Counted from the first letter of the stretch, positions 5,363 through 22,304 are shown. The stretch: 35,886 nucleotides of DNA from Candidatus Woesearchaeota archaeon (GCA_018302265.1 JAGVZV010000008.1:1-35886); one strand, 5' to 3'. The notes: generated by a model from the letters alone, not told the origin. Translations and numbers: made by a program.

Positions 5363-6967
5363 ATGAGATATTACGAAGACCCTTTATTAAATTCTAAAAG
5401 ATATACCTTATATGATGGGGTTCTGAATCTATATTCTGCTCTGTTGAATAAAAAAGATTTTGAATCTGATAGAATACTTAATAATTTTCCTTATGTAGTT
5501 ATAGACAATATAGAATTGAATCAACAACTTATAGACTCATTAAAAAAGTATATTGGATGTAATATTAGTAAGGGAGCAATAAAAGGATGGGTATTAAATA
5601 GCAAATTTCCTTTGCCTCTTTTAAGAGTCATTTCTTTAAAGGCACCTAACCCAGAAAAAATTCTTTCTAATTTAATTAAAAGTATAAAATCAGTTACAAG
5701 TAATTTTGGAAATACTATAAAATTGTCTATTAAATATTCTGATTTGTTAATGAATAAACATATTTATTTCCACGGTTATTTATTAGGTGATGGTTGCATA
5801 TCTGATGACCTAATTAAATTAGCTGATGGACATCAAGATAAGTCTAAGATTCATTATTCAAAGCAACATATTGGTATGTTTAAAAAATATCTTAAGATAT
5901 GTTATAATTTGAATTCTAAAATTAAGCGAGTTGGTAATTGTTATCATCTAATAGCTTCAAGAAATAAATTTTTATCTAGGTATATTAAATTTTTTTATGG
6001 TTATGATAAAGACAAAGAAATAATTAGAGTTCCAGATATTATTAAAGATGATAGAGAAAAAATAAAGATATTTTTAAGAGGATTTTTTGATGCCGATGCA
6101 GGAATTAGTGAATTGTATAATTCAGTTATTTTAAAATCCAAGGATCACAATTTTTTAAAGTTTTGTAAGCTTTTTTTGGAAAAAGAAGGATTATTTTTGG
6201 ATAATGTTAAATTTGACTCTACTGGCGTATCATACATTACTATAAAATCTACAGAGTTTTTAAAATATGCGTATACAATTGGTTTTAATCATTCTCGCAA
6301 AAAAGAAATTTTATTGAATAGACTTAAGAAAAATTGTCCATTAAATGTATTTCGTGGGGTAAGAAAAAAATATTTGATAGATAGTTTGTATTTTGATTTT
6401 ACTATAATTCCAGATATGAGATTAACAGGACTACAAGATTTTTTTAAGAATATGAGATGTGATATTGGCACCCAAGAGGAAGTTTCTAAACTATTAAAAA
6501 TTCCCAGGAGATATGTAGGAAAATATGAAAATGGATTGTACTCTATTCCGATTGATATTTTTCTAAATTTAATCCAGATTAAAAATAAAATAAGGCTAGC
6601 AGATATATTTTCTAAAAATGACGTTAAATTTTGTATAAGCAAAAATAAAGGAGCTATAAAATTGCCATTATCAATAAATGATATAAATTTTGATATTTTA
6701 AAATATATGGCACCTACTCAGCATAAGATAATTATAAAGCGTTATGGTATTATTAATATAACTAATAAAATAAACAAAGAAATACTCTTTAAAAGAATAG
6801 AAGATTTCTTTGGTGTTAAAATTGTTAAAGATTCAGACTCTCACGTTATATTTAACACTACATTGGCTAGATTTTTGAATACATTTTTTGTATATGAATC
6901 TGCTTGGAAAGGGTTAAATGATAAAGAAAGAATTGATTTAGATAGAAAATTACAAATTCAGATGTAA
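5363..6967 (+). CDS. Free-standing double-motif LAGLIDADG homing-endonuclease-like protein with a C-terminal HTH
   Basis: Two LAGLIDADG motifs (HGYLLGDGCI and LRGFFDADAGI) about 100 aa apart. An XRE-like HTH (GTQEEVSKLLKIPRRYVGKYENGLYSIP) lies downstream. Not embedded in an intron or intein. Confidence 0.7.
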   Translation: MRYYEDPLLNSKRYTLYDGVLNLYSALLNKKDFESDRILNNFPYVVIDNIELNQQLIDSLKKYIGCNISKGAIKGWVLNSKFPLPLLRVISLKAPNPEKILSNLIKSIKSVTSNFGNTIKLSIKYSDLLMNKHIYFHGYLLGDGCISDDLIKLADGHQDKSKIHYSKQHIGMFKKYLKICYNLNSKIKRVGNCYHLIASRNKFLSRYIKFFYGYDKDKEIIRVPDIIKDDREKIKIFLRGFFDADAGISELYNSVILKSKDHNFLKFCKLFLEKEGLFLDNVKFDSTGVSYITIKSTEFLKYAYTIGFNHSRKKEILLNRLKKNCPLNVFRGVRKKYLIDSLYFDFTIIPDMRLTGLQDFFKNMRCDIGTQEEVSKLLKIPRRYVGKYENGLYSIPIDIFLNLIQIKNKIRLADIFSKNDVKFCISKNKGAIKLPLSINDINFDILKYMAPTQHKIIIKRYGIINITNKINKEILFKRIEDFFGVKIVKDSDSHVIFNTTLARFLNTFFVYESAWKGLNDKERIDLDRKLQIQM

Positions 6968-11077: not shown

Positions 11078-12524
11078 TCAACCTTTAATTACAGAAAGTG
11101 GTGAAACTCTTACGACCTTGCTTCCCAAACCAACACCATGAGAAACTTCTATAACTGACTCTATTTCCTTGTACACTCCAGGCGCTTCTTCAGCAAGTCC
11201 ATCCCAAGAACCAGATTTTACTTCTATACCTTTTTCATGCAATTCTTTTTTAATAGTTTCCCCTCTGAATTGTCTTAAAGCTTCATGCCTTGACATCACT
11301 CTACCTGCACCATGAGGAGCACTACTAAAAGAAATCTCTTCTGCTTTGTTAGTTCCAACTAAAATATATGATGGATTACCCATCGATGAAGGCACAAGTA
11401 CCGGCTGTCCTGTTTTTTTATAAATCTCAGGTAATTCATCTCGTCCAGGACCAAAAGATCTTGTAGCACCTTTACGCATAATCAATACTTCTCTCGTTTT
11501 TCCATCTATTAAATGTTTTTCGAATTTTGCCACATTATGCGCGACGCAATATAATAAATTTATTTTTACCTTACCAAAAACTTTTTCAAAAGATTCACGT
11601 ATCCAATGCATTATCATCTGTCTATTTGCAAATGCAAAATTAGTTGCTGCACTCATTGCACCATAATATTTTTGCCCTAAATCAGAATTGATTGGTGCAT
11701 TTATCAGTTCTCTGTCAGGCAAATCCTTAAATCCATATTTCTGCTCCATTAGTTTTATGTAATCAGATGCAACTTGATGCCCAAGACCACGACTACCACA
11801 ATGAATTTGTATAACAACATTCTCTGGGTTAATACCCCATTCTTTAGCAATTTTATCATCAAATATCTTATCCACTTTTTCAACTTCCAAAAAATGATTT
11901 CCTGATCCTAGAGAACCAAGCTGAGGCATCCCACGTTTTAATGCTGTATCTGAAACAGCACCTGGATCTGCTTTTGGCATACAACCATACTCTTCTGTTC
12001 TATCAATATCTTCTTTTATGCCATAACCTTCTTTTACTGCCCATTTAGTCCCATTTTTTAGAACCTCCATCAAAATATCCTTTGTTACTCTTAGAGTTCC
12101 CTTGCTTCCAAGACCGGATGGAACATTCTTGTATACTTCATTGATTAATTGATCTCTTTTTTTTAGAAATTCATTTACAGAAAGGTCTGTTAAACAGCAT
12201 CTTACCCCACAATTGATGTCGTCTCAGGAAATTAAAGATTCTTTAATTTAATCCTACGCCACCAGGTGAGATTATTCCTTCCTGCATATCAAATGCAGCT
12301 ACACCACCGATTGGAAAACCGTAGCCTGAATGTATGTCTGGCATAGCCAAAGCACGCTTTTGGATTCCCTTCAGTGTTGCAACATTTGCTAGCTGTTTTA
12401 TTGCCTCTGGCTCTACAGCATCAAGGAGCTTTTTAGATGCAAAAATAACTCCTGGAACCAGCATAGAGCCTGTTTTAGGCAATTCCCATTCATATTCCGA
12501 TATTTTCTTTAACTGGTCTTTCAT
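11078..12524 (-). CDS. rtcB: RtcB RNA 3'-phosphate ligase (tRNA-splicing ligase), interrupted by a 28-nt putative BHB intron; proposed CDS = complement(join(11078..12222,12251..12524))
   Basis: N-terminal ORF 12243-12524 ends ...[19 protein letters not shown]...ISPGGVGLN*. The downstream frame (+1) reads *DDINCGVR... and continues into ORF 11078-12073. That ORF carries all RtcB metal/GMP His motifs ([29 protein letters not shown]). The joined length is 1419 nt (472 aa). Confidence 0.9.
12223..12250 (-). other. Putative 28-nt bulge-helix-bulge (BHB) intron within the rtcB mRNA
   Basis: On the minus-strand RNA: outer helix UGGUGGCG/CGACAUCA (7 of 8 pairs), 3' bulge AGA, 4-bp central helix UAGG/CCUG, 5' bulge AUU, inner 9-bp perfect helix AAAUUAAAG/CUUUAAUUU with loop AAU. 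Cutting after the second nt of each bulge removes exactly 28 nt and joins GGA-U|AC-GAC, giving G-Y-D. Confidence 0.6.
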
Positions 12525-12539
12525 TGTTGATAATAAGAT

Positions 12540-13583
12540 TTATGTATTTATTAACATTTCGCTGATTTTTTCTCTTAGTTTATATGTATCAGCCCATTTT
12601 GCATAAGCCTGCCATCCTTGATAGCTTTCTAGAATCTTTTCTTTTGTTATTTGTTTATTTTTATACTGATTTATTTTTATCAACATTTTTCTTATATTTC
12701 TTTTCCTTAATAGCCTATAATAATAAAAATTCCTAAAACCAATAAAATCTATTCCTCTTGATAAAGAGATTACTTTAGACTTTTCTTTGTGCAATTCCAG
12801 CTTTAATTCTTCTTTTAGAAAGGCGTCTATTTGTTCTTTCCATTTGGTTAATTGCTCTTTAGAATTATGCAAAATCACAAAATCATCAACATATCTTATA
12901 TAATATTTAGCTTTAAGTTTATGCTTAACAAAATAATCCAATTCATTGAGATAAACATTTGCAAAGAACTGAGAAGTCAGATTTCCTAGGGGCATTCCTA
13001 TATCCTCTTTTTCCTGTCCATTTATTAATATTAGTTTGATTAAATTGATTACTTTTTCATCTGCTATCTTCTTCTCTATTATTTTTATTAAAATGTTATG
13101 ACTAACTTCATAAAAATAATGCTTTATATCTCCTTTGAAGCAATAGCCTGAAACAAAATTATCATCAAAAATATCAGAGATTAACTTTCCATTATTTGAT
13201 GCCTTTCTCTTGAACAGATTGAATCTTTTAACTGCAAATAAATTTCCTTTGTTCTTTCTTGAAGCGCATGAATCATGTATAAATATCTTCTCAAAAATAG
13301 GTTCTATTATGTTGCATAAAGCATGATGGACTATCCTGTCTTCAAAAAAGGAAACGTGTATTACCCTTGTTTTTGGGTCTCTGATAATAAATCTCTTTAG
13401 CGGTCTTGGCTTGTAGGTTTCACTTAATAATCTTTCTTGTAGTCTTAATAGATTTTCTTTTAAATTATATTTAAATTGAATTACGTAATCTTTTTTGGTC
13501 TTTCCTTTTCTAGCTTTTTTGAATGCTAGCAATAAATTATTATAAGAATAAATTTTATGATATAAATTATTATGAGTATGCAT
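12540..13583 (-). CDS. DGR-type reverse transcriptase
   Basis: RT motifs RDPKTRVIHVSFFEDRIVHHAL, GDIKHYFYEV, GMPLGNLTSQFFANVYL (the [LI]GxxxSQ signature typical of DGR RTs), YIRYVDDFVIL (YxDD), KSKVISLSRGIDFIGF. About 350 aa with no maturase or endonuclease domain. The stop lies 15 nt upstream of the rtcB ATG. Confidence 0.9.
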   Translation of the reverse strand: MHTHNNLYHKIYSYNNLLLAFKKARKGKTKKDYVIQFKYNLKENLLRLQERLLSETYKPRPLKRFIIRDPKTRVIHVSFFEDRIVHHALCNIIEPIFEKIFIHDSCASRKNKGNLFAVKRFNLFKRKASNNGKLISDIFDDNFVSGYCFKGDIKHYFYEVSHNILIKIIEKKIADEKVINLIKLILINGQEKEDIGMPLGNLTSQFFANVYLNELDYFVKHKLKAKYYIRYVDDFVILHNSKEQLTKWKEQIDAFLKEELKLELHKEKSKVISLSRGIDFIGFRNFYYYRLLRKRNIRKMLIKINQYKNKQITKEKILESYQGWQAYAKWADTYKLREKISEMLINT

Positions 13584-13610
13584 TTTATTGCCTTAGCAGC
13601 ATAGACCATT

Positions 13611-13708
13611 CCGAGCCCAGAAGTCCCGTTCTTAATGAATTTCGAGTTCTGAGGATCCCTATTGCAATTCAAGTTAGCCCTATCCGAGTTAGCATTGAAC
13701 CCCGCAAC
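13611..13708 (-). repeat. DGR template repeat (TR): core 13643-13708 plus 3' extension with an IMH*-like TTCTGGGCTCGGAATG (IMH = initiation of mutagenic homing)
   Basis: The minus strand reads gtt gcg ggg ttc AAT gct AAC tcg gAt Agg gct AAC ttg AAT tgc AAT Agg gat cct cAg AAC tcg AAA. It is rich in AAY codons. The 66-nt core aligns without gaps to all three VRs. Confidence 0.85.
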
Positions 13709-13954
13709 AGTTAAAGTAGCACACTAATCAAATATTCACGGCTATCTTAATTTTCATTCAGAAACTTTCCCAAGGCTCCTTCATTATTACTGGTTATCAT
13801 AGCTGTATTTTATAACCGGAATCTTTTGGATTTGGTTGTAATCAGCATGCATGTGGTCTAAGTTATTGATCCTCACTAACTTATTGGGTAAGTTTCAAAT
13901 CAATAGAGCTAAGACATTTTTATAGAATAAAATTAATTAATAAAGCTTCCTAAA

Positions 13955-14752
13955 TTACGCGCCTTCGGCGCACCCAAACACCCCGAGCCCAGAATACGAG
14001 AACCGAGGATCCCAATTGCAACCCAAGTCAGCCCAATCCGAGTAAGCATAGAACCCCGCCACAGCACCATCTTCTGGTTTCCAATATCTAATATTTTCTC
14101 CTTGTCTATACTCTTGAGTATTATGTTTTGCATTTGGATTTGCTAATCCCTGATTATTTAGATTGGTAAAATCTATATAACAGTCATTCATTAGGCACGG
14201 ATTTAAATCTTCAACTGTTGTTACAAGTTTTCCATTATTTAACCCATTTATTGTTTCAAGATGCCATTTTTTCTTTTTATTTATGCATTTTCCATTAAGC
14301 CATGTCCACACTCCTAGTTTTTTTGGGTCATATATAGCTATGTGATCTTTAGTTAGATGTAGATACATATTCAGTATTTCCTCTTCTCTAATTCTTGAGT
14401 TTTCTGCATTTAGTACAGGTGTCTTATTTTTGTAAGCATCTAAAATTTTATTGAAAAAATGCATGAATATTCTTGGAGTGGGTACATACAGTTTATTTCC
14501 AAGCAATTTTGTATGGGTATCTTCGTAATTCATGTTATTGTATCCTGGCAGTTCAAACTTGGATATTACTGCTCTTTTTCCATATAATCCATTTGTATCT
14601 AATTGAACATATTCTTTTGGATCTTGTATATCAAATTCTCCAGAAACATTTGGATCATCTACTTTTTGTGCTAGTATAGAAGTCTCTTTTAGATCTGGAT
14701 TATGGGTTAATTCTGCTAATCTTATTAGATTTGGATTAATTCTCTTATTCAT
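13955..14752 (-). CDS. DGR variable protein, target 3 (C-terminal VR1); putative C-type-lectin/DUF1566-like variable domain
   Basis: C-terminus ...NIRYWKPEDGAVAGFYAYSDWADLGCNWDPRFSYSGLGVFGCAEGA*. VR1 occupies roughly the last 36 codons. The N-terminus shares the NPNL.RLAE..HNPDLKETSILAQKVDDPN module with its paralogs. No signal peptide. Confidence 0.8.
   Translation of the reverse strand: MNKRINPNLIRLAELTHNPDLKETSILAQKVDDPNVSGEFDIQDPKEYVQLDTNGLYGKRAVISKFELPGYNNMNYEDTHTKLLGNKLYVPTPRIFMHFFNKILDAYKNKTPVLNAENSRIREEEILNMYLHLTKDHIAIYDPKKLGVWTWLNGKCINKKKKWHLETINGLNNGKLVTTVEDLNPCLMNDCYIDFTNLNNQGLANPNAKHNTQEYRQGENIRYWKPEDGAVAGFYAYSDWADLGCNWDPRFSYSGLGVFGCAEGA
13979..14062 (-). repeat. VR1 (variable core 13997-14062) plus IMH-like TTCTGGGCTCGGGGTG (13979-13996)
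   Basis: Hand alignment to the TR gives 12 mismatches at TR adenines and one T-to-G at the 5' edge. A GC hairpin GCGCC-GAA-GGCGC (minus-strand reading; 13959-13971) follows. Confidence 0.85.
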
Positions 14753-15603
14753 TTTTGCTCCTTAATTTTTGCGATACGCACCCCGAGCCCAGAATACGAG
14801 AGCAGAGGATCACTAAGGCAATCCAAGAGAGCCCTACCCGAGGAAGCATAGAACCCCGCAACAGAATTATTATCCTTCATTGGACGCCAATAATTAATAT
14901 CATCTCCTTCTTTTGTTGGCATTCCCTGCTTGTTGCAACCGGATAAATCTATTTTACAATTATCCATTAGACATTCTTCTAATAATTTCCTATTTCTTGG
15001 GATTAAATTACCATTTGCATCCCGGACATGATTATAATAAATATATAAATTACCTTTTTCACTTTCCTGTATTTCCTTTCCTGCCTTATTTAAATATTTA
15101 AAATCAGCATCAAGCCATTCTGCTCTTCCAGGATTTCTTACACCAATAATTTCATCTAAAATTCTTTCCAGTTCTTTTGAATCTATTTTATTTTCATTAC
15201 CATCAAATGCTTTTCCTGATTTAAGAAGACTAATAAAATCTATCCCCTGCCTTGGATTAAGAGTAAATCCATTTAATTCTAAATTCAATCTTAAGGAATT
15301 TATCCAATTTATGTTTCCAATATAATCTCTTCCATTCTTTTCCTTTGATGTATTTGATAATTTTAATCCCAAAATATTTGCTACTTTTTCAACTTCTGGA
15401 TTATAAGATAATCTGTATTTTGAAACTAACAAATCAGGATATTCATAAGTTCCATGTCTTCCTTCAAGAATAATATAATCCTGTGGGTTTTGAACATTTA
15501 TGTTTGGTGTTTGTATTGGCTGTTGCACTAGTGAAGTATCCACTTTTAGATCTGGATCATATGTCTGCTCTGCTAGTTTTAGTAAATTTGGGTTTATTTT
15601 CAT
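14749..15603 (-). CDS. DGR variable protein, target 2 (C-terminal VR2)
   Basis: C-terminus ...DINYWRPMKDNNSVAGFYASSGRALLDCLSDPLLSYSGLGVRIAKIKEQK*. ATGA overlap with target 3. The N-terminal MKINPNLLKLAEQTYDPDLK is identical to target 1. Confidence 0.8.
   Translation of the reverse strand: MKINPNLLKLAEQTYDPDLKVDTSLVQQPIQTPNINVQNPQDYIILEGRHGTYEYPDLLVSKYRLSYNPEVEKVANILGLKLSNTSKEKNGRDYIGNINWINSLRLNLELNGFTLNPRQGIDFISLLKSGKAFDGNENKIDSKELERILDEIIGVRNPGRAEWLDADFKYLNKAGKEIQESEKGNLYIYYNHVRDANGNLIPRNRKLLEECLMDNCKIDLSGCNKQGMPTKEGDDINYWRPMKDNNSVAGFYASSGRALLDCLSDPLLSYSGLGVRIAKIKEQK
14779..14862 (-). repeat. VR2 (variable core 14797-14862) plus IMH-like block (14779-14796)
   Basis: 14 mismatches at TR adenines and one G-to-T (agg to agt). 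The 43-nt 3' flank 14758-14800 is identical to 17156-17198. A small hairpin TGCG-TAT-CGCA (minus-strand reading; 14770-14780) and an AAGGAG sequence precede the next ATG. Confidence 0.85.
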
Positions 15604-17150
15604 TGTATTGATTTCTTGAGTTCCCCCATTGTTATGCTTTTAATGTCATCCTGTGAATGAAGTGGGAGAATAGCTACATTTTTCTTATCTTTCAACCTTT
15701 CTGACAGATTTTTTATGTTCCCAGAATCTGTATAGAACAAATGAACCCTGTGAACATTTGGCAATCCAGAGATGTAAGACAAAAATTCATCTAAATTGTG
15801 AATTCCCATATCAGAAACAACGCTTATGTCAATGCTCTTTTGCGCTTTAACCATATTTTCTATTGTTGATGTGCTGAATACAGTTCCGCCTGACTGATAT
15901 GTTCTTATTATTTTGTGGATATTTTCCTTTTTATTGGAAGGACCAAAAACCAGATTGTCTGCTGAAAAATTATAAATTGTTACCTTAGATCCATTATTGA
16001 GATAGGCATTTGCTATTACAGTTGCTCCTAAAACAGGTATTGAAATATTTTCATCAGGGTTTGGCATGCTCCCAGATGAATCAATAACAATCAAGCTATC
16101 CGGAATTTCAAAATAGGCTGTTGTAACCTCTCCCTCTTTCTTAATCCATTTTTGTGTTATACCTGGAATTATTCCTGGACTTGAAAAAGGATCAAGATCA
16201 TTTATGTGATCATCGAGACTAAATTCCTCATGTGAGTGTGGATATAAACTTCCATTCTTTTGTATTTGTTTTTTTCTAATAGGTATTGAAAAGTTCTCTG
16301 CAAGTGCTGAATAGAAATTTCTTGCTATAATTATATTTCCCTTCTCAGTTCCAGCGCTTTTTCCTGATTCTTGTTCTTTTAATTCCTTTCCCTCATTAGA
16401 TTTTTCTAAAAATTGTTTTACTACATCCTCAAATTCTCCAGGCTGTGATTCCTGGGCAAACTGCCTTATTCCCTCTCTTACTTGATTATCAGAAAAACCA
16501 GAGCCAGAATCATGATCTTTTGATTCATATTTTTCATCCTGATGTTGGTCCATATATTCTTTAATAACACCAATAAATTTCCTAAAATTATTTTCTTCAT
16601 TTGTTTTATCTAAATAATCTATTCCACTTAATCTTTCAATTAAATTATTTTCTTCTTTCTTAAGTTTTAATCCAAAATCTGTTTTCCATAATTTTTGACA
16701 TAATCCAAAAAATATCTTATCCAAACTTTTTGATTTTATAGCTTCTGATTTTAGAGATTTTGGTATGCTCTCGTAACCCTTATTCTCAACAAGATTTGTA
16801 TTATTTTGTACATTCAAGAATGCCTCTCTTGAATAATAAGCCTTCTGCCCATAAAGACTTTCACTGGCGATTTTTTGCAATCTTAACAAATTTAAAACAG
16901 ATCCAGGATAATCTATAAAATGCCCTGTTTCATGCCCTAAAATTGCATTGAATGATGTAGATTCATCGCAATCAGATTTCTTCAGTTCTTGGACATAATC
17001 TGGATTAATAGTAATTTGGAGATTTTCAAAATTAAATTGTCCATTTGGAATATCTTGTGATAATTTTGGCTGAGGCAATTGAGGATAGTAAAAATCCCTT
17101 CTTACTTCCTGCCATTCTCTTTCCATTATATTTTGTAAATCTTCAGTCAT
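15600..17150 (-). CDS. Protein with an N-terminal HExxH metallopeptidase-like domain and a C-terminal VWA domain
   Basis: AILGHETGHFIDYPGS contains HExxH. The C-terminal LIVIDSSGSMPNP carries the DxSxS motif of the metal-ion-dependent adhesion site (MIDAS), with downstream SGGT and SDMG. The architecture recalls the DUF2201-type VWA partners of MoxR ATPases (from memory, needs an HMM check). 4-nt overlap with target 2. Confidence 0.75.
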   Translation of the reverse strand: MTEDLQNIMEREWQEVRRDFYYPQLPQPKLSQDIPNGQFNFENLQITINPDYVQELKKSDCDESTSFNAILGHETGHFIDYPGSVLNLLRLQKIASESLYGQKAYYSREAFLNVQNNTNLVENKGYESIPKSLKSEAIKSKSLDKIFFGLCQKLWKTDFGLKLKKEENNLIERLSGIDYLDKTNEENNFRKFIGVIKEYMDQHQDEKYESKDHDSGSGFSDNQVREGIRQFAQESQPGEFEDVVKQFLEKSNEGKELKEQESGKSAGTEKGNIIIARNFYSALAENFSIPIRKKQIQKNGSLYPHSHEEFSLDDHINDLDPFSSPGIIPGITQKWIKKEGEVTTAYFEIPDSLIVIDSSGSMPNPDENISIPVLGATVIANAYLNNGSKVTIYNFSADNLVFGPSNKKENIHKIIRTYQSGGTVFSTSTIENMVKAQKSIDISVVSDMGIHNLDEFLSYISGLPNVHRVHLFYTDSGNIKNLSERLKDKKNVAILPLHSQDDIKSITMGELKKSIQ

Positions 17151-17152
17151 TT

Positions 17153-17917
17153 TTACTCCTTAATTTTTGCGATACGCACCCCGAGCCCAGAATACGAGCC
17201 CCGAGGATCCCAAGCGCAACTCAAGAGAGCCCTACCCGAGAAAGCAACGAACCCCGCAACACGTTCTTTTTGTTTTTCTAGTTTGGAATTAACACGCCAG
17301 ATATGAGCATCCTTTTCTGTTATCCATTTGTAAATATTATTTATTTCTTGTAAATTATCAGATCCTAGTAATGCCTTGAATGTATTTTTTTCTTTTAATT
17401 TTTTTACCCATTCATCTGGTCCAACAAAATCATCAGACACATTATATTGATCAGGCATTTTATAATTGTGAATTACTATATCTTTATTTGGAGAAGGCAT
17501 ATATTTTATTCTTGTTAAAGTCATTAACCAATTCTTGAACATTTTTTCTTTAATGAATTGCTTTGCCTGTTCTACTAAGTGCTTATTAGAAGAATCTCTG
17601 TTCTGATACAATGCCTGAAATAATGAATGATAGAGAGGAAAATCTCCTAGCTTAAATTCATTTGTTTTAGAGTATTCTGACCACTGGTCTTGTGTCTTAG
17701 AATCTCCATTATCCAATAATTCTTTTTGCAAGTCCACATGGTAAATTCCATCTCTGTAATTTACTCCTGTTACTGCCCAAAAATTAGGATTGTTGTTTAT
17801 ACTAAATTCTTGGGAAATATTTGGATCAGCTACTTTTTGTGCTAGTATAGAAGTCTCTTTTAGATCTGGATCATATGTCTGCTCTGCTAGTTTTAGTAAA
17901 TTTGGGTTTATTTTCAT
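17153..17917 (-). CDS. DGR variable protein, target 1 (C-terminal VR3)
   Basis: C-terminus ...EKQKERVAGFVAFSGRALLSCAWDPRGSYSGLGVRIAKIKE*. The N-terminal module is shared with targets 2 and 3. 4-nt overlap with the upstream AAA+ gene. Confidence 0.8.
   Translation of the reverse strand: MKINPNLLKLAEQTYDPDLKETSILAQKVADPNISQEFSINNNPNFWAVTGVNYRDGIYHVDLQKELLDNGDSKTQDQWSEYSKTNEFKLGDFPLYHSLFQALYQNRDSSNKHLVEQAKQFIKEKMFKNWLMTLTRIKYMPSPNKDIVIHNYKMPDQYNVSDDFVGPDEWVKKLKEKNTFKALLGSDNLQEINNIYKWITEKDAHIWRVNSKLEKQKERVAGFVAFSGRALLSCAWDPRGSYSGLGVRIAKIKE
17177..17260 (-). repeat. VR3 (variable core 17195-17260) plus IMH-like block (17177-17194)
   Basis: 16 mismatches to the TR, all at TR adenines. Hairpin TGCG-TAT-CGCA (minus-strand reading) at 17168-17178. 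Confidence 0.85.
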
Positions 17918-19263
17918 TCTAACTCCTGTCCTAAATCCAAGAATACAGGATGACCCTTGCCGTTTGCAGCATATAATTTGGCTGCTTTTTTAGCTTCTTC
18001 CAATTTATTTTTTTGTATACAATTAATAACAGCCTGATAATTATTTCTGCTTTCAAGGAATCTTTTTTTAACGCCAGGCAGTTCGCTTGTTCCATCTCCA
18101 AGCAATGTTTTTACTGCATACAACAATAATGGATCTTTTCTGCTATCATCTTTTAATTTACTAGCAACACCATCAGTTAATCTTAACCTGTGCCATAATG
18201 CATAAGGAGCTACAGTCAGCATGTGCTCTAGATTTACTTCTTTTAAATCCTGCAACCATGCTAATGCCTGTGAATATCTTACTATGCTTTTATCCTCTCT
18301 TCTGCTTCCAGAACCCTCTATTAAATTGTATAGATAATGTCCCTCTTCTCCATTTATTGGATCATTGCTTCTTTTCTGCCCAAATTTAGGATGTGTGTTT
18401 AATTCTGAAATCAGGAAACTCAAATAAGTCAAAGCATCCTTGTCTAGTGCAATCTTTCCTATTTCGCTGTCTATTTCATTTAGTTCTTGCTCTGTCAGTG
18501 TCTCTAATCCATTTTGCTTTAATTCTTTTCTGAACACTTCAGATAAATCATTAAGGCTATTCCTTATTTCTTGATATGGCTTTCCTGAATTTAGCAATTC
18601 AATTATTTTATTTGAAATTTCAGGATTTTTTAATATAGCATCTTTAGCACCATAATAATCCTGGCTAATTGCTATAGCATTTGCTACTCCTGGGAATTTG
18701 CTTTCTGTAGCTACATCAAATCTATCTAAAATAGGGGGTATAAGTGAATTATTTCCTCTATCTTCATAATTACATGTAGCAAAAAATGGTTGTTTATCTT
18801 GGCTTATATGCTCATTAAGATAACCCCATTCTCCCCTATCTAATCCATCCAAAAGCATAGACTGGCTTGATTCTGGTATTCTATTAAATTCATCAACTAT
18901 TTTTTGTGGCACTAAAACAAAGTGTTGCCATACAACATGTTCCTGACCCTGATGCATTTTACCATAATCTGGTCTTCCAACTATCTTTTCTTGTGTTAGT
19001 TGTGGACTTCCACGGATAACCGCCCTTCTTACAATTTCAATTGGTAAATTATTAAATAAAGAATGCAAGTATTCTGCGCTTGTAGTCTTACCCCCACCAT
19101 ATTCACCAAATAATATTTGTCTCCCTCTATTAAGCTCTGTTAATACACCAAATAATAGAGAAGAATTGAATTTATCATTGCCAATATTTAAATCATCTCT
19201 ACATAAATAAAAATTATTCCTAATCTGTTCATATAAACCCTTAACCTTATCTTGATATTTCAT
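17914..19263 (-). CDS. MoxR-like AAA+ ATPase
   Basis: Walker A GEYGGGKTT, Walker B KIVDEFNR, sensor-like FFATCNYEDRG and an RFD Arg. The C-terminal half is helical. Confidence 0.75.
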   Translation of the reverse strand: MKYQDKVKGLYEQIRNNFYLCRDDLNIGNDKFNSSLLFGVLTELNRGRQILFGEYGGGKTTSAEYLHSLFNNLPIEIVRRAVIRGSPQLTQEKIVGRPDYGKMHQGQEHVVWQHFVLVPQKIVDEFNRIPESSQSMLLDGLDRGEWGYLNEHISQDKQPFFATCNYEDRGNNSLIPPILDRFDVATESKFPGVANAIAISQDYYGAKDAILKNPEISNKIIELLNSGKPYQEIRNSLNDLSEVFRKELKQNGLETLTEQELNEIDSEIGKIALDKDALTYLSFLISELNTHPKFGQKRSNDPINGEEGHYLYNLIEGSGSRREDKSIVRYSQALAWLQDLKEVNLEHMLTVAPYALWHRLRLTDGVASKLKDDSRKDPLLLYAVKTLLGDGTSELPGVKKRFLESRNNYQAVINCIQKNKLEEAKKAAKLYAANGKGHPVFLDLGQELE

Positions 19264-19400
19264 CTTTTCTCCTCCTTCAGCAATTTCTCCAGACTGTATT
19301 CTATGACATGAGACCTGTTTCTAAATCTCCCATTTTCCAGCATAGAATCTATCAATTTTATCTTCTCTTCGTCCATTGACACACTTATTTTTTGCTTCAT
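19260..19400 (-). CDS. Ribbon-helix-helix (CopG/MetJ-type) DNA-binding protein, 46 aa
   Basis: MKQKISVSMDEEKIKLIDSMLENGRFRNRSHVIEYSLEKLLKEEKR* shows a beta-strand then two-helix pattern. Its stop overlaps the AAA+ ATG (ATGA). Below the ORF-track cutoff. Confidence 0.65.
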   Translation of the reverse strand: MKQKISVSMDEEKIKLIDSMLENGRFRNRSHVIEYSLEKLLKEEKR

Positions 19401-19412
19401 TTTATTAATTTA

Positions 19413-19430
19413 TGCTACTTCGTAGTAGCA
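19413..19430 (-). promoter_or_regulatory. Perfect 7-bp inverted repeat (TGCTACT-TCGT-AGTAGCA) between the TATA-like box and the RHH start; candidate operator
   Basis: The palindrome is read directly from the sequence. It lies 13-30 nt upstream of the RHH ATG and downstream of the TTTATAAATA box (19436-19445). Confidence 0.4.
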
Positions 19431-19435
19431 GAACT

Positions 19436-19480
19436 TATTTATAAACCTTTTGGTTTGTTGTTATTTTATAGAAGTAACAC
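19436..19480 (-). promoter_or_regulatory. Promoter-like block with TATA-type element, shared with the second DGR-like locus
   Basis: Minus strand GTGTTACTTCTATAAAATAACAACAAACCAAAAGGTTTATAAATA. About 85% identical to 28380-28422, which occupies the same position upstream of the other locus. Confidence 0.45.
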
Positions 19481-19550
19481 TAAATATCAACAACAACCCG
19501 AACTATAAAAGGTTTTTCCTTGATAAACATCTCGTTATAAGTTACAGCCT
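19480..19550 (-). pseudogene. Remnant copy of the archease gene 3' end (about 23 codons plus stop)
   Basis: The minus strand encodes AVTYNEMFIKEKPFIVRVVVDI*, versus AVTYNEMEIKEKPYMVQVVVDI* in the intact archease. About three quarters of nt are identical, including a perfect 17-mer AAATATCAACAACAACC (plus strand) in both copies. An in-frame stop lies immediately upstream. Confidence 0.75.
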
Positions 19551-19600
19551 AAACATATAATAAACGAAAGTTATATATATTAGTAACTATTGTTTATTAT

Positions 19601-20239
19601 ATGATTCCGCTAATATTAAAATTGAAAAAAGCCCAGCATAAAGGTATTGCCCAAGCGCAGGATTTGATAATTAAAGAATTATATAATGTATTTAATGAGG
19701 CAGTTTTGCATGGAGGAACCAGTATCTGGAGATGCTATAAAGGGAATAGATTTTCAGAGGACATCGATGTTTATATCCAAAAAGATATAAAAAAATTAGA
19801 TGAATTATTTGACAGATTTAAAAAAATAGGGTTTATAATAGAAAAAAGAAAGATAACAGAAAACAGCCTGTACTCCAATTTGAAATTTAACAGAATTTCT
19901 GTAAGATTTGAGGCTTTATTTAAAAGAATAAATGGTGCACTGATGGAATATGAAAATAGCGATGGAAATGTTATTATGGTATATTCATTAACCCCAGAAG
20001 AGTTAATAAAAGAAAAGGTAAATGCTTATTTAAACAGGAATAAAATAAGGGATTTATATGATATATTTTTCTTATTAAAATATATTAAGGATAAGATAAG
20101 CATAAAAGAAAGTTTATCCAATCTAATAAAAAATTTTAAAGCTCCAACAGATGAAAAAGATTTAAAGATTTTAATTTTAGAGGGAATTGTTCCAAAAGCA
20201 GAAAAAATGATGGAATATATAAAAAATAAAAATGGGTAA
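19601..20239 (+). CDS. AbiEii-like nucleotidyltransferase (type IV toxin-antitoxin / abortive-infection toxin family)
   Basis: LHGGTSIWRCYKGNRFSEDIDVY resembles the GGTAL..CY...R.S.D[IL]D NTase motif of AbiEii/DUF1814 proteins. Confidence 0.6.
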   Translation: MIPLILKLKKAQHKGIAQAQDLIIKELYNVFNEAVLHGGTSIWRCYKGNRFSEDIDVYIQKDIKKLDELFDRFKKIGFIIEKRKITENSLYSNLKFNRISVRFEALFKRINGALMEYENSDGNVIMVYSLTPEELIKEKVNAYLNRNKIRDLYDIFFLLKYIKDKISIKESLSNLIKNFKAPTDEKDLKILILEGIVPKAEKMMEYIKNKNG

Positions 20240-20819
20240 GGAAAAATATCTCAAAGACATAGAAAATATTTTTAAAAAGAGTGCAGTAGTTGATGCTAAA
20301 TCCATAGAGCGTTTTATAAAAAGCAAAAAGAGAATAAAACAATATCAAAAACAGCTGATAAGAAACCTTATTTTAAAGGGAAAAATTAAAAGATTAACTA
20401 AGGGGTACTATAGTTTGTATGATGATCCTTCATTACTGGTGTTTTGTTTTAAGCCAGCATATTTGGGGCTGCAGGATGCTATGAGCTTCAATAATTTATG
20501 GGAGCAAGAAACAATACCTGTAATAATCACCTCCAAAAAAATAAGGCAGGGCATTAGAAAAGTATTTGGAAACAATGTCTTGATAAGAAGGATTAAAAAA
20601 AGATATATATTTGGGTTTGAATATCAAAAACAAAAAGACTATTATCTGCCTTATTCTAATATAGAAAAAACATTTATAGACATGATATATTTCAATCAAA
20701 AAATAAGTGAAGAAGATTTAAAAAACATTCTTAAACAAGTAAACAAGCAAAAATTAAAATCTTATCTTAAAATATATCCGTTAAAATTCAGGAAAAATAT
20801 TTTAAATTTTATTTCATAA
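20232..20819 (+). CDS. AbiEi-like antitoxin / wHTH regulator
   Basis: The basic segment KQLIRNLILKGKIKRLTKGYYSL is typical of the AbiEi N-terminal domain. 8-nt overlap with the preceding NTase gene. The gene order (NTase first) is reversed relative to the usual abiEi-abiEii order. Confidence 0.45.
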   Translation: MGKEKYLKDIENIFKKSAVVDAKSIERFIKSKKRIKQYQKQLIRNLILKGKIKRLTKGYYSLYDDPSLLVFCFKPAYLGLQDAMSFNNLWEQETIPVIITSKKIRQGIRKVFGNNVLIRRIKKRYIFGFEYQKQKDYYLPYSNIEKTFIDMIYFNQKISEEDLKNILKQVNKQKLKSYLKIYPLKFRKNILNFIS

Positions 20820-21224
20820 TCAAATATCAACAACAACCTGAACCATATAAGGCTTTTCCTTTATCTCCATTTCATTGTATGTAACTGCCTTTATGTTTAT
20901 TTTTATATCATATTGATTATTGAATTTATCCCCAATCAGTTCAGCAGTTAATTCATTCCCATCAATTTTAATATTTCTAATTTTATGCAATAAAAACTTC
21001 TCTGTATCCAGCAATATAAGCAATTGTTCAAGAAAATTATATAATAAAGACTTTTTATCTGATCCTTTTACTTTTATCTTATGTGTTAATTTTGATTTTA
21101 TTTTATTATAATCTGTCATTACAGAAGTCATAGCCAAAGCTGCATTTGAAAATGCTTCTTCTAGTGATTTACCAAATGCCTGGAATTTAGCATCTGCTCT
21201 GTGCTCTAGAAATTTGTATTTCAT
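20820..21224 (-). CDS. Archease (RtcB activator)
   Basis: MKYKFLEHRADAKFQAFGKSLEEAFSNAALAM and the C-terminal KAVTYNEMEI... are archease hallmarks. 134 aa. Confidence 0.85.
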   Translation of the reverse strand: MKYKFLEHRADAKFQAFGKSLEEAFSNAALAMTSVMTDYNKIKSKLTHKIKVKGSDKKSLLYNFLEQLLILLDTEKFLLHKIRNIKIDGNELTAELIGDKFNNQYDIKINIKAVTYNEMEIKEKPYMVQVVVDI

Positions 21225-21226
21225 TT

Positions 21227-21628
21227 TTAACCTATTTTCTTATTTAACATAATTTCAAGTTTTTTTATTATATTTAATAATCTGTCTTTTTTATTTTTCA
21301 AGTAACTATTCTCTATTTCCTTCCCTTCATAAGAGCTTTTATTTCTTTTTATTCTCAAATCGTTTATTAAGTTTATTTCCAACTCATCCAGTTCTTTATA
21401 TTTTGAAAGTTCTTCTACCATCTCCTTGTGTGCATATTCTCCGATTGCCTTAATCCCATTTAGTAATAATACAGCAGTGACTAATTCTTTTATTATTTCA
21501 TAATAATTTTCTGCTGCATTTGTTGGAAATTTTGTTGAATCAATTGAAGAAACAAATTCTTTCCTGTTTTTTATTAATCTCAGCATGGATTTCGCTTTTT
21601 CCAGATCCGGAGTTACTTTGATTATCAT
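21227..21628 (-). CDS. HEPN domain protein (partner of the upstream MNT gene)
   Basis: Small helical protein. LRIKRNKSSYEG resembles the HEPN Rx4-6[HY] motif. 1-nt gap from the MNT gene. Confidence 0.6.
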   Translation of the reverse strand: MIIKVTPDLEKAKSMLRLIKNRKEFVSSIDSTKFPTNAAENYYEIIKELVTAVLLLNGIKAIGEYAHKEMVEELSKYKELDELEINLINDLRIKRNKSSYEGKEIENSYLKNKKDRLLNIIKKLEIMLNKKIG

Positions 21629-21629
21629 A

Positions 21630-22178
21630 TTAAAACACCTTCAGGTATCCCTTAAGAATTATGCCATTTATTATATTATTCTTCAATTCCTTAGGTATAT
21701 TTTTTATATTAGATTCAAATATCAAATGTATTTTTTTATCCAATTTTTCCTCAAATTTACTTAAATCTATTTTCTTTTCTTCCCCGATTATAAAGATATC
21801 AATATCTGATTCTTCTGTAAACTCCCCTTTTGAATAGCTCCCATACAAAACTATTACATCTGGTGAAAGAGAATTCCATAATTTATCAACTAATCCGCAG
21901 TCATTCAGCTCATAGATTATACTTATTTTTTTATATAAAATAAATTTTTCATTATCTCTTACTGCCTGATAAAAAGGGATCTCTCTCTTCTTGAATCTGC
22001 TGATTAAGCTTTCTTTCTCAAATTCCTTAAGATAATTCATGACAGATAAGGGTGATATTCTACTCAGCTTGCTTAATTCCCTAAGTCTAAATACTTCTGT
22101 TGGGGAGTCTAGAAAAACCTTCAAAAGCTTATATCTGTTATAATTTTGTAACATATGTAATAAAAATATAACACTCAT
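21630..22178 (-). CDS. Minimal nucleotidyltransferase (MNT) with an N-terminal wHTH
   Basis: VLYGSYSKGEFTEESDIDIFIIG is the GS...DxD Pol-beta-fold NTase motif. The N-terminal LLKVFLDSPTEVFRLRELSKLSRISPLSVMNYLKEFE is HTH-like. Confidence 0.7.
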   Translation of the reverse strand: MSVIFLLHMLQNYNRYKLLKVFLDSPTEVFRLRELSKLSRISPLSVMNYLKEFEKESLISRFKKREIPFYQAVRDNEKFILYKKISIIYELNDCGLVDKLWNSLSPDVIVLYGSYSKGEFTEESDIDIFIIGEEKKIDLSKFEEKLDKKIHLIFESNIKNIPKELKNNIINGIILKGYLKVF

Positions 22179-22212: not shown

Positions 22213-22304
22213 TGGGCCCGGAGGGATTTGAACCCTCGGCCTTCGCCTTGTAAGGGCAACGTCTTAACCATTGTCCATCAAATAAGATTCTGGACCACAG
22301 GCCC
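22213..22304 (-). tRNA. tRNA-Val(UAC) with a 19-nt intron in the D-loop (after G15; 22271-22289)
   Basis: Acceptor GGGCCUG/CGGGCCC, anticodon arm UUGCC-CUUACAA-GGCGA, T arm GAGGG-UUCAAAU-CCCUC, discriminator A. The D region GUCC-AG[AAUCUUAUUUGAUGGACAA]UGGUUA-AGAC becomes a canonical AGUGGUUA D-loop after excision. GUCC/GGAC forms the 4-bp central helix, flanked by 3-nt bulges AGA and AAU. Confidence 0.8.

Follow-up and report, generated by a model that had tools for sequence, protein, structure and literature searches.

What do the hypervariable proteins of an archaeal diversity-generating retroelement (DGR) do when their genes alternate with those of an ATPase and of a putative metal-dependent partner? 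The question is raised by a 35,886-nucleotide stretch from Candidatus Woesearchaeota archaeon (GCA_018302265.1 JAGVZV010000008.1:1-35886; this whole stretch is called the window below), in which three DGR target proteins (T1 to T3) are encoded in one operon with an RHH-like protein, a MoxR-like AAA+ ATPase, and a protein that combines an HExxH motif with a VWA domain (Table 1). The function of cellular DGR targets is a long-standing question and very few of their partners are known; the operon provides a tag peptide, a metal ion-dependent adhesion site (MIDAS), and an ATPase as testable ones. We rank as the best-supported and most likely reading, with a probability of about 0.5, that the DGR is active and that its three targets serve as exchangeable recognition subunits of a MoxR-type AAA+/VWA machine, with two rivals beside it, one making the ATPase/VWA pair a chaperone and the other treating the tag as a leader for processing or export.

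Diversification of the three targets is evident from the comparison of the template repeat (TR) with their variable regions (VR1 to VR3). In an ungapped register, 42 of the 45 mismatches fall at TR adenines (16 of 17 in VR1, 14 of 15 in VR2, and 12 of 13 in VR3), all at codon positions 1 or 2. The TR encodes TVAGFNANSDRANLNCNRDPQNS, with six AAY codons and 12 variable codons in total, so composed that adenine mutagenesis can reach no stop codon while about 10^10.4 variants are possible per target, and the VRs end 10 to 15 codons ahead of the target stop codons. The TR closes with a sequence resembling IMH* (IMH, initiation of mutagenic homology), TTCTGGGCTCGGAATG (...CGGAATG), where the VRs have ...GGGGTG (...CGGGGTG), and the same AA-to-GG difference is found in six related loci (...TCGAATA in the TR, ...TCGGGTA in the VR). 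In these six loci TR/VR homology is contiguous up to the IMH-like end. In the TR of the window, the mutagenic core is additionally separated from the IMH*-like end by 18 nt, ATTCATTAAGAACGGGAC (13619-13636, minus strand), which read as six in-frame codons (KFIKNG) and have no counterpart in any of the three VRs or in the six related TRs.

The remaining DGR components lie directly downstream of T3. The interval between the T3 stop codon and the TR is filled by a full-length match to the RT-16 RNA motif (Rfam RF03019; E=5.6e-9; 69.7 bits, with 50 as the gathering score), presumably a part of the DGR RNA in which the TR resides. The reverse transcriptase (RT) matches Pfam RVT_1 (E=3.9e-20), contains the motif SQFFANVY, and has more than 580 relatives in DPANN genomes, some of which adjoin TR/VR pairs at other loci. 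The accessory protein Avd is not universal among DGRs, and between T3 and the RT there is no open reading frame (ORF) of at least 100 aa that might encode one. The first-pass annotation had drawn the unit at 13955-19400, thereby leaving out the RT-16 RNA, TR, and RT (12540-13954), which are part of it. Metagenomic copies of T1 and T2 depart from the window proteins mainly or only within the VR, so that the DGR is or recently was active: one entry of a public protein collection (P0301) equals T1 except for seven residues, all of them in the VR, and in two cluster variants of T2 (P0304 and P0305) most of the changes fall in the VR. As to a virus origin, no relative was found among IMG/VR viral contigs.

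The ATPase is predicted to be of the MoxR class with its catalytic motifs intact. It matches Pfam AAA_5 (29.4 bits; cutoff, 22) and AAA_lid_2 (25.9 bits; cutoff, 22.7), and its best solved relatives in a profile search are the MoxR-like protein 2r44 (3.7e-5) and the Mg-chelatase subunit BchI (1g8p; 2e-4). Walker A (GEYGGGKTT), Walker B (VDEFNR), sensor 1 (N165), the arginine finger (R181, within DRFD), and sensor 2 (GSGSRR) are all invariant in 13 orthologues.

In a 24-sequence alignment of the partner protein, H73 and H77 of the HExxH motif do not vary, E74 is conserved to at least 90%, and the MIDAS residues (D357-x-S359-x-S361, T423, and D447) are invariant as well; among 213 full-length family members, HExxH is retained in 187 and DxSxS in 212. 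In its AlphaFold model (pLDDT 70), the N-terminal domain is helical, helix 63-79 bearing the HExxH motif, and both the linker (about residues 250-347) and the C-terminus are conserved, yet disordered in the model. Pfam VWA_2 scores 17.9 bits, below the cutoff of 27; residues 350-510 of the model match NorD, vWF-A (A3), and integrin I domains with a Foldseek probability of 1.0, and this C-terminal part has a VWA fold in the model, with a complete MIDAS. A likeness of the whole model to Ro60 was rejected, as its root mean square deviation is 23-24 Å and it reflects a shared helical-plus-VWA composition, not homology. PDB sequence and profile searches with the whole VWA family and with its N-terminal domain alone gave no significant match, and hits to RhoGEF and CueR (E about 0.05-0.25) were treated as noise. 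DUF2201_N/DUF2201 proteins have an HExxH domain followed by a VWA-like domain and are paired with a MoxR-like ATPase, and a DUF2201-type protein had been the initial guess for the window protein; 21 family members gave no match to PF13203 or PF09967 at E up to 0.1, and the guess was dropped. The family comprises 92 close homologues and, at 50% identity clustering, 950 representatives, without functional annotation, the few names given in the sources being "hypothetical protein" or, once, "VWA domain-containing protein"; the members with a named organism and the genome loci described below are all from DPANN archaea (Woese-, Pace-, Nano-, and Aenigmatarchaeota).

Is the association of DGR targets with this pair particular to the window? 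The first-pass annotation had regarded the variable genes as embedded in the operon and a linkage unique to this contig as the sign of chance; the linkage recurs in DPANN genomes, in metagenomes, and in highly divergent operons. A pattern search with the VWA family gave 17 loci in 17 DPANN species genomes, and all of those with enough sequence have the order RHH, AAA+, one to three small genes, VWA, and again one to three small genes. An RHH homologue is the first gene in 11 of the 17, and in 7 an RT and TR adjoin and the small genes carry adenine-specific VRs at their 3' ends. In metagenomes, all 27 loci that extend at least 2.6 kb upstream have the AAA+ gene there, on the same strand, RHH is present in 21 of 25 loci with at least 3 kb upstream, and 22 loci of at least 8 kb include 16 with an RT and 14 with adenine-biased TR/VR pairs. 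One locus (L102), from groundwater or sediment samples, is 100% identical to the window. Six divergent operons (L021, L044, L055, L064, L070, and L071) have the identical gene order, with AAA+ and VWA proteins diverged almost beyond recognition; their VWA proteins require a broad profile for detection and retain DxSxS and, near residues 70-110, HExxH. The L021 VWA protein, for example, aligns in hhalign with E=0.12 to the narrow profile and with 7.7e-10 to the broad one, and carries HEIDH at residue 73 and DTSDS at residue 395.

Within the window, the six ORFs called initially are all confirmed on the minus strand. Their junctions, described at that time as 4-nt overlaps or a 2-nt gap, are ATGA overlaps between RHH and AAA+, AAA+ and T1, VWA and T2, and T2 and T3, and a 2-nt gap between T1 and VWA (TAA-AA-ATG). 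The leading 46-aa RHH gene also withstood scrutiny as a conserved first gene in related loci, though its library scores (Pfam RHH_1, E=0.0015; NCBIfam ParD family, E=7.7e-5) are under the curated cutoffs. The GC content of the operon (31-34%) equals that of its flanks.

A further feature ties the variable proteins to their operon. All variable proteins of one operon have in common an N-terminal tag of 20 to 35 aa, which differs between operon subfamilies. The first 20 residues of T1 and T2 are identical (MKINPNLLKLAEQTYDPDLK), and T3 has a close variant (MNKRINPNLIRLAELTHNPDLK) that is about 75% identical to the T1 tag; despite these near-identical tags, the bodies of the three proteins are <30% identical to each other. 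The small genes flanking the VWA gene in the 17 genome loci start with N-P-x-[FL]-[LI]-x-x-A-E in nearly every case, and the window-type tag heads 112 distinct complete ORFs in related operons, about 85% of which end in VR-type sequence. Each divergent operon has a tag of its own, shared by all its variable proteins: MNYKIPDSFMDKSVEGAIERVL in L044, IRIPDNFMGKPIEGAMERAL in L055, MKLPTTFMGYDGKTELERIE in L070, MTNLIGSRKESPIWNLEEIVMSPAEI in L071, MKSKQDYLKMLFGEPRAREQNVVLDRIQ in L064, and ...KIDSGLAEKLNEYY in L021. T1 has 63 homologues, and the N-termini of T1-body homologues are mostly unrelated to the tag.

The tag also heads proteins without a VR. In the same operon position, it is found on non-DGR leucine-rich repeat (LRR) proteins (L015:1743-3962 and L017:5442-6203; Pfam LRR_8 and LRR_14, E 1e-10 to 1e-29), in which the LRR domain replaces the VR, and on 150- to 160-aa paralogues in tandem arrays (L011:8873-12871, and also L127, L143, L162, and L163), which end ...EFYDxQKI...EINxWFDxNGK and have neither a family match nor a VR. 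In a DGR-less variant of the operon (L002:7519-14170), the AAA+ and VWA genes are separated by those for a tagged protein of 134 aa, followed by a radical SAM/SPASM enzyme and a polyprenyl synthetase; a Ser/Thr protein kinase is encoded downstream of this variant. One ENA contig (P0093; 1203 nt) combines the T1 body with the T3 version of tag and linker, which is due either to recombination between the paralogues, with a swap of tags, or to a chimeric assembly. Because the tag is shared operon-wide, differs between subfamilies, is not found on most T1 homologues, and is present on non-DGR cargo, it is tied to the core (the AAA+/VWA pair) and not to the DGR or to a given protein body, and in these sequence comparisons its behavior is that of a docking handle. 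The first-pass annotation had proposed sensors or adaptors that are interchangeable, and this view is directly supported by an operon-specific tag that LRR and other non-DGR cargo carries as well.

The AlphaFold model of T1 (pLDDT 88.6) is disordered over residues 1-35 except for a helix at 6-12, and continues as an alpha/beta body with the VR on its last three beta-strands. Foldseek gave weak hits only, mostly to C-type lectin domains (Mincle, SP-A/D, and CLEC5A; E 0.2-2, target TM-score 0.4-0.5), and the sole PDB sequence match of T3 is the WIGL region of the C-type lectin lithostathine, which is not significant (E=0.48). PDB sequence and profile searches with T1, T2, and T3 gave no significant match, and scans of the three with Pfam, NCBIfam, and PADLOC gave nothing meaningful. 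Since the Foldseek hits are weak and the T3 match is not significant, a C-type-lectin fold is likely but unproven for T1 to T3. No transmembrane segment or signal-like hydrophobic stretch was found in the operon proteins by a crude Kyte-Doolittle scan (maximum 19-residue mean, ≤1.2), in agreement with what had been noted for the variable proteins and with the proposal that they would act within the cell.

From this organization we infer the following mechanism. Each variable protein would begin with the tag, in which an amphipathic helix surrounds a conserved Glu, and continue through a flexible linker into a lectin-like body whose C-terminal face is rewritten by the RT from the TR. The tag would dock the variable protein on the core, a MoxR-like hexamer bound to the HExxH-VWA protein, with the MIDAS metal of the VWA domain, binding the conserved Glu of the tag helix, as the likeliest docking site. 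By analogy with NorQ/NorD, where the pore of the AAA+ protein takes up a finger of the VWA domain, the C-terminus of NorD touches the hexamer, and a linker is remodeled (PMC13036017), the conserved linker and C-terminus of the VWA protein, which parallel the NorD finger and C-terminus, would make contact with the AAA+ hexamer. The capture of a ligand by the hypervariable face may then be coupled to ATP-driven remodeling of the VWA protein and to the HExxH metal center, so that the bound ligand is processed or a signal is released, and the RHH protein may autoregulate the operon. As has been proposed for bacterial DGR/MoxR/vWA conflict systems, the likeliest role would be to recognize macromolecules of foreign or host origin inside the cell. 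A bolder version, in which the tag plugs both DGR-lectin and LRR receptors into one MoxR/VWA-metallopeptidase core and captured targets are remodeled or cleaved in an ATP-dependent manner by what would be a programmable intracellular machine, seems doubtful to us. If true, it would amount to anticipatory, antibody-like protein-targeting immunity or host manipulation, with a logic like that of F-box/cullin ligases, in genomes of about 1 Mb.

Several observations weigh against the recognition-subunit reading. Among more than 580 DPANN RT loci, the 80 closest to that of the window include only 7 with an HExxH-VWA homologue within 10 kb (2 by narrow hidden Markov models, 7 by a broad profile built from 213 family members), and DGR and core therefore appear to be separable modules, joined repeatedly or stably. 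Tags and DGRs also exist without an adjacent core, since in locus L018 (5324-9571) three tagged variable proteins with different bodies and a third type of tag (MPIDDYLxKLxG) have no AAA+/VWA pair or RT within 8 kb. The N-terminal HExxH domain matches no Pfam, NCBIfam, or PDB entry and no peptidase family or structure, and peptidase activity is consequently suggested at the level of the motif. For the third metal ligand of a zincin, no invariant downstream Glu, His, or Asp was found, the consensus E112 being Asn in the window protein, and at least one family member has HAxxH instead of HExxH. The metallopeptidase-like/VWA fusion that had been proposed for this protein hence stands as to motif, VWA fold, and MIDAS, and falls short of a peptidase family or fold match. 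The assignment of T1 to the lectin fold is weak (E 0.2-2), and Foldseek against BFVD gave no match. Lastly, the operon proteins have no classical toxic effector domain, PADLOC finding only the RT, and the MoxR/VWA pairs studied by experiment are all chaperones or maturation factors and none is a sensor. As for L018 itself, its variable proteins have two neighbors, a secreted or anchored protein of 592 aa and a cadherin/LTD-like one of 1502 aa.

The absence of a toxic effector domain and the roles of the studied pairs also favor a reading in which the MoxR/VWA pair is a dedicated chaperone or quality control system that recognizes the tag to fold, metal-load, assemble, or cull variable proteins, which would be clients acting elsewhere. 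All characterized pairs (NorQD, CbbQO, RavA-ViaA, and others) are maturation factors, translational coupling suits a client-chaperone stoichiometry, a tag on a flexible tether would suit client recognition, and many hypervariable variants may fold poorly. However, tagged LRR proteins and small nonvariable proteins should need no special folding help, 73 of the 80 related RT loci manage without an adjacent pair, and the invariant HExxH is left unexplained unless clients are culled or processed; we regard this reading as possible but rather unlikely. We consider it still less likely that the tag is a leader, cleaved by the HExxH domain after AAA+-assisted handling, and that the mature binders are displayed or secreted where symbiont and host meet, as is usually assumed of the variable proteins in DPANN archaea. 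With a disordered linker behind it, the conserved N-terminal tag does resemble a leader, the tagged 134-aa protein and adjacent radical SAM/SPASM maturase of L002 recall ribosomally synthesized and posttranslationally modified peptides, peptide-processing modules attached to MoxR-vWA systems have been reported (Kaur 2020), and the T1/T3 tag swap in P0093 fits a tag that is separable from the body; nevertheless, no transporter or membrane component is present in the operon or conserved in the surveyed flanks, the Kyte-Doolittle scan revealed no transmembrane or signal features, and a cleavage site is not identifiable from the sequence.

A stand-alone DGR inserted by chance beside an unrelated MoxR/VWA pair would agree with the fact that DGRs of the same RT clade mostly lack the pair and with the position of the operon in an island between rtcB and archease with toxin-antitoxin-like genes at its flanks. 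Such an insertion would not be expected to yield an interleaved order of AAA+, variable protein, VWA, and variable protein, with overlapping stop and start codons, that is kept in dozens of loci and in divergent subfamilies, or tags that co-vary with the core. Chance juxtaposition is effectively refuted by the conserved linkage seen in the neighborhood surveys.

How does the operon, read as a recognition-subunit machine, compare with known systems? DGR-diversified lectin/FGS domains linked to MoxR and vWA are known from cyanobacteria and gammaproteobacteria, where they have been described as VMAP ternary conflict systems (Kaur 2020, PMC7159879) and reinterpreted as hypervariable antigen sensors (Doré 2024, PMC10907252), with a logic of sensor, NTPase transducer, and peptidase or other effector proposed in both studies. 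Like the VMAP systems, the DPANN operon has a MoxR-type AAA+ protein, a vWA/MIDAS protein, and a DGR-hypermutated binding domain in one neighborhood, and in both there are several targets per RT, for the VMAP systems often so. In clade 5A loci of Doré, MoxR is directly upstream of the target without vWA (PMC10907252). Unlike the VMAP systems, however, the operon proteins have no VMAP, trypsin, caspase, TIR, or EAD hit (Pfam/PADLOC, E up to 0.1), and the lectin domain resides on separate, tagged proteins of 240-300 aa instead of being fused to vWA. As it lacks a VMAP protein and a lectin-vWA fusion, the operon is outside the VMAP ternary definition; it adds to the VMAP pattern an HExxH-vWA fusion, a leading RHH gene, and the tag system, and its hosts are genome-reduced DPANN archaea whereas those of the VMAP systems are multicellular bacteria.

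The archaeal AvpA DGRs (PMC4372165, PMC5006420) are similar in having several orphan targets per DPANN/Nanoarchaeota locus, about 12 variable codons, and an AAY-rich VR. For the divergent C-type lectin fold of AvpA, the nearest solved structure is that of CLEC5A (Handa 2016, PMC5006420), a protein that is also among the weak hits of the T1 model. The VR of AvpA is followed by a 46-aa tail, whereas that of T1 to T3 is essentially C-terminal, and the available parts of the AvpA papers (PMC4372165, PMC5006420) make no mention of AAA+/VWA neighbors or shared N-terminal tags. With NorQ/NorD, CbbQ/CbbO, and RavA/ViaA, the core shares its composition as a two-gene AAA+ and VWA-MIDAS module, and NorD is one of the Foldseek hits. 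These classical pairs serve one fixed client enzyme, whereas the presumed partners here are swappable, hypervariable, and tag-marked, and the VWA protein of the window differs from theirs by its extra HExxH domain.

The first-pass annotation had also taken the architecture to be undescribed. Its exact archaeal form was indeed not found in the searchable literature, the coverage of which excluded Paul et al. 2017 (the main CPR/DPANN DGR survey) and Makarova 2019, and Roux 2021 does not mention ATPase, MoxR, or vWA; the concept of a DGR/MoxR/vWA association, in contrast, was already published for bacteria (Kaur 2020, Doré 2024), and it is the archaeal variant that we rate as new. The association is thereby extended from multicellular bacteria to genome-reduced DPANN symbionts, whose DGRs have been stated to be without conflict-system domains. 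This published lack may reflect Pfam-based detection, since Pfam nearly misses the proteins described here, VWA_2 being subthreshold and the HExxH domain being without a model. Further, a tag with exchangeable cargo (DGR lectins, LRRs, and others) suggests a modular principle by which designed binders could be attached to an ATP-driven core.

Table 1. Features of the DGR/MoxR/VWA operon, in coordinates of the window
Feature	Coordinates	Strand	Basis or remark
RHH-like protein, 46 aa	19400-19260	minus	First gene of operon
MoxR-like AAA+ ATPase, 449 aa	19263-17914	minus	Pfam, invariant motifs
Variable protein T1, 254 aa	17917-17153	minus	ORF; N-terminal tag, flexible linker, alpha/beta body, C-terminal VR
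T1 N-terminal tag (MKINPNLLKLAEQTYDPDLKETSILA)	17840-17917	minus	Near-identity with T2/T3 tags
VR1 (variable region of T1)	17193-17263	minus	TR comparison
HExxH/VWA protein, 516 aa	17150-15600	minus	N-terminal helical HExxH domain, conserved disordered linker, C-terminal VWA (predicted)
Variable protein T2, 284 aa	15603-14749	minus	ORF, shared tag, VR
VR2 (variable region of T2)	14795-14865	minus	TR comparison
Variable protein T3, 265 aa	14752-13955	minus	ORF, shared tag, VR
VR3 (variable region of T3)	13995-14065	minus	TR comparison
RT-16 structured RNA motif, 204 nt	13914-13711	minus	Rfam RF03019
Template repeat (TR)	about 13711-13600, mutagenic core 13641-13711	minus	IMH*-like end after core
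DGR-type reverse transcriptase, 347 aa	13583-12540	minus	Pfam RVT_1

The operon is located between the genes for the tRNA ligase RtcB and archease (20820-21224), which are functional partners (region 11078-22178), and is accompanied by an AbiEii-like gene and an uncharacterized ORF (19601-20819) as well as by a nucleotidyltransferase gene and a small ORF (21227-22178), possibly an MNT/HEPN-type pair. The operon region looks like an island inserted into the rtcB-archease neighborhood. The rtcB gene (11078-12524, minus strand) has an apparent frameshift near 12240 (...PGGVG|LN* versus DINCGVR... in another frame), and its split could be due to an assembly error, a pseudogene, or recoding. At the putative island edge, a partial tRNA-like Rfam match (22221-22277, minus strand; 33.7 bits, model positions 8-63) without an ARAGORN call may represent half of a tRNA, the scar of an integration, or a tRNA with an intron, and the two called tRNAs are unusually long (84-85 nt). 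Elsewhere in the window, a 534-aa ORF (5363-6967, plus strand) with LAGLIDADG_3 and HTH_3 matches, situated in the stretch of lowest GC content (24-26% at 5-7 kb), may be a free-standing homing-endonuclease-like gene, and a 585-aa RCC1-repeat protein (Pfam E 1e-53 to 1e-65) is encoded at 110-1867 on the plus strand.

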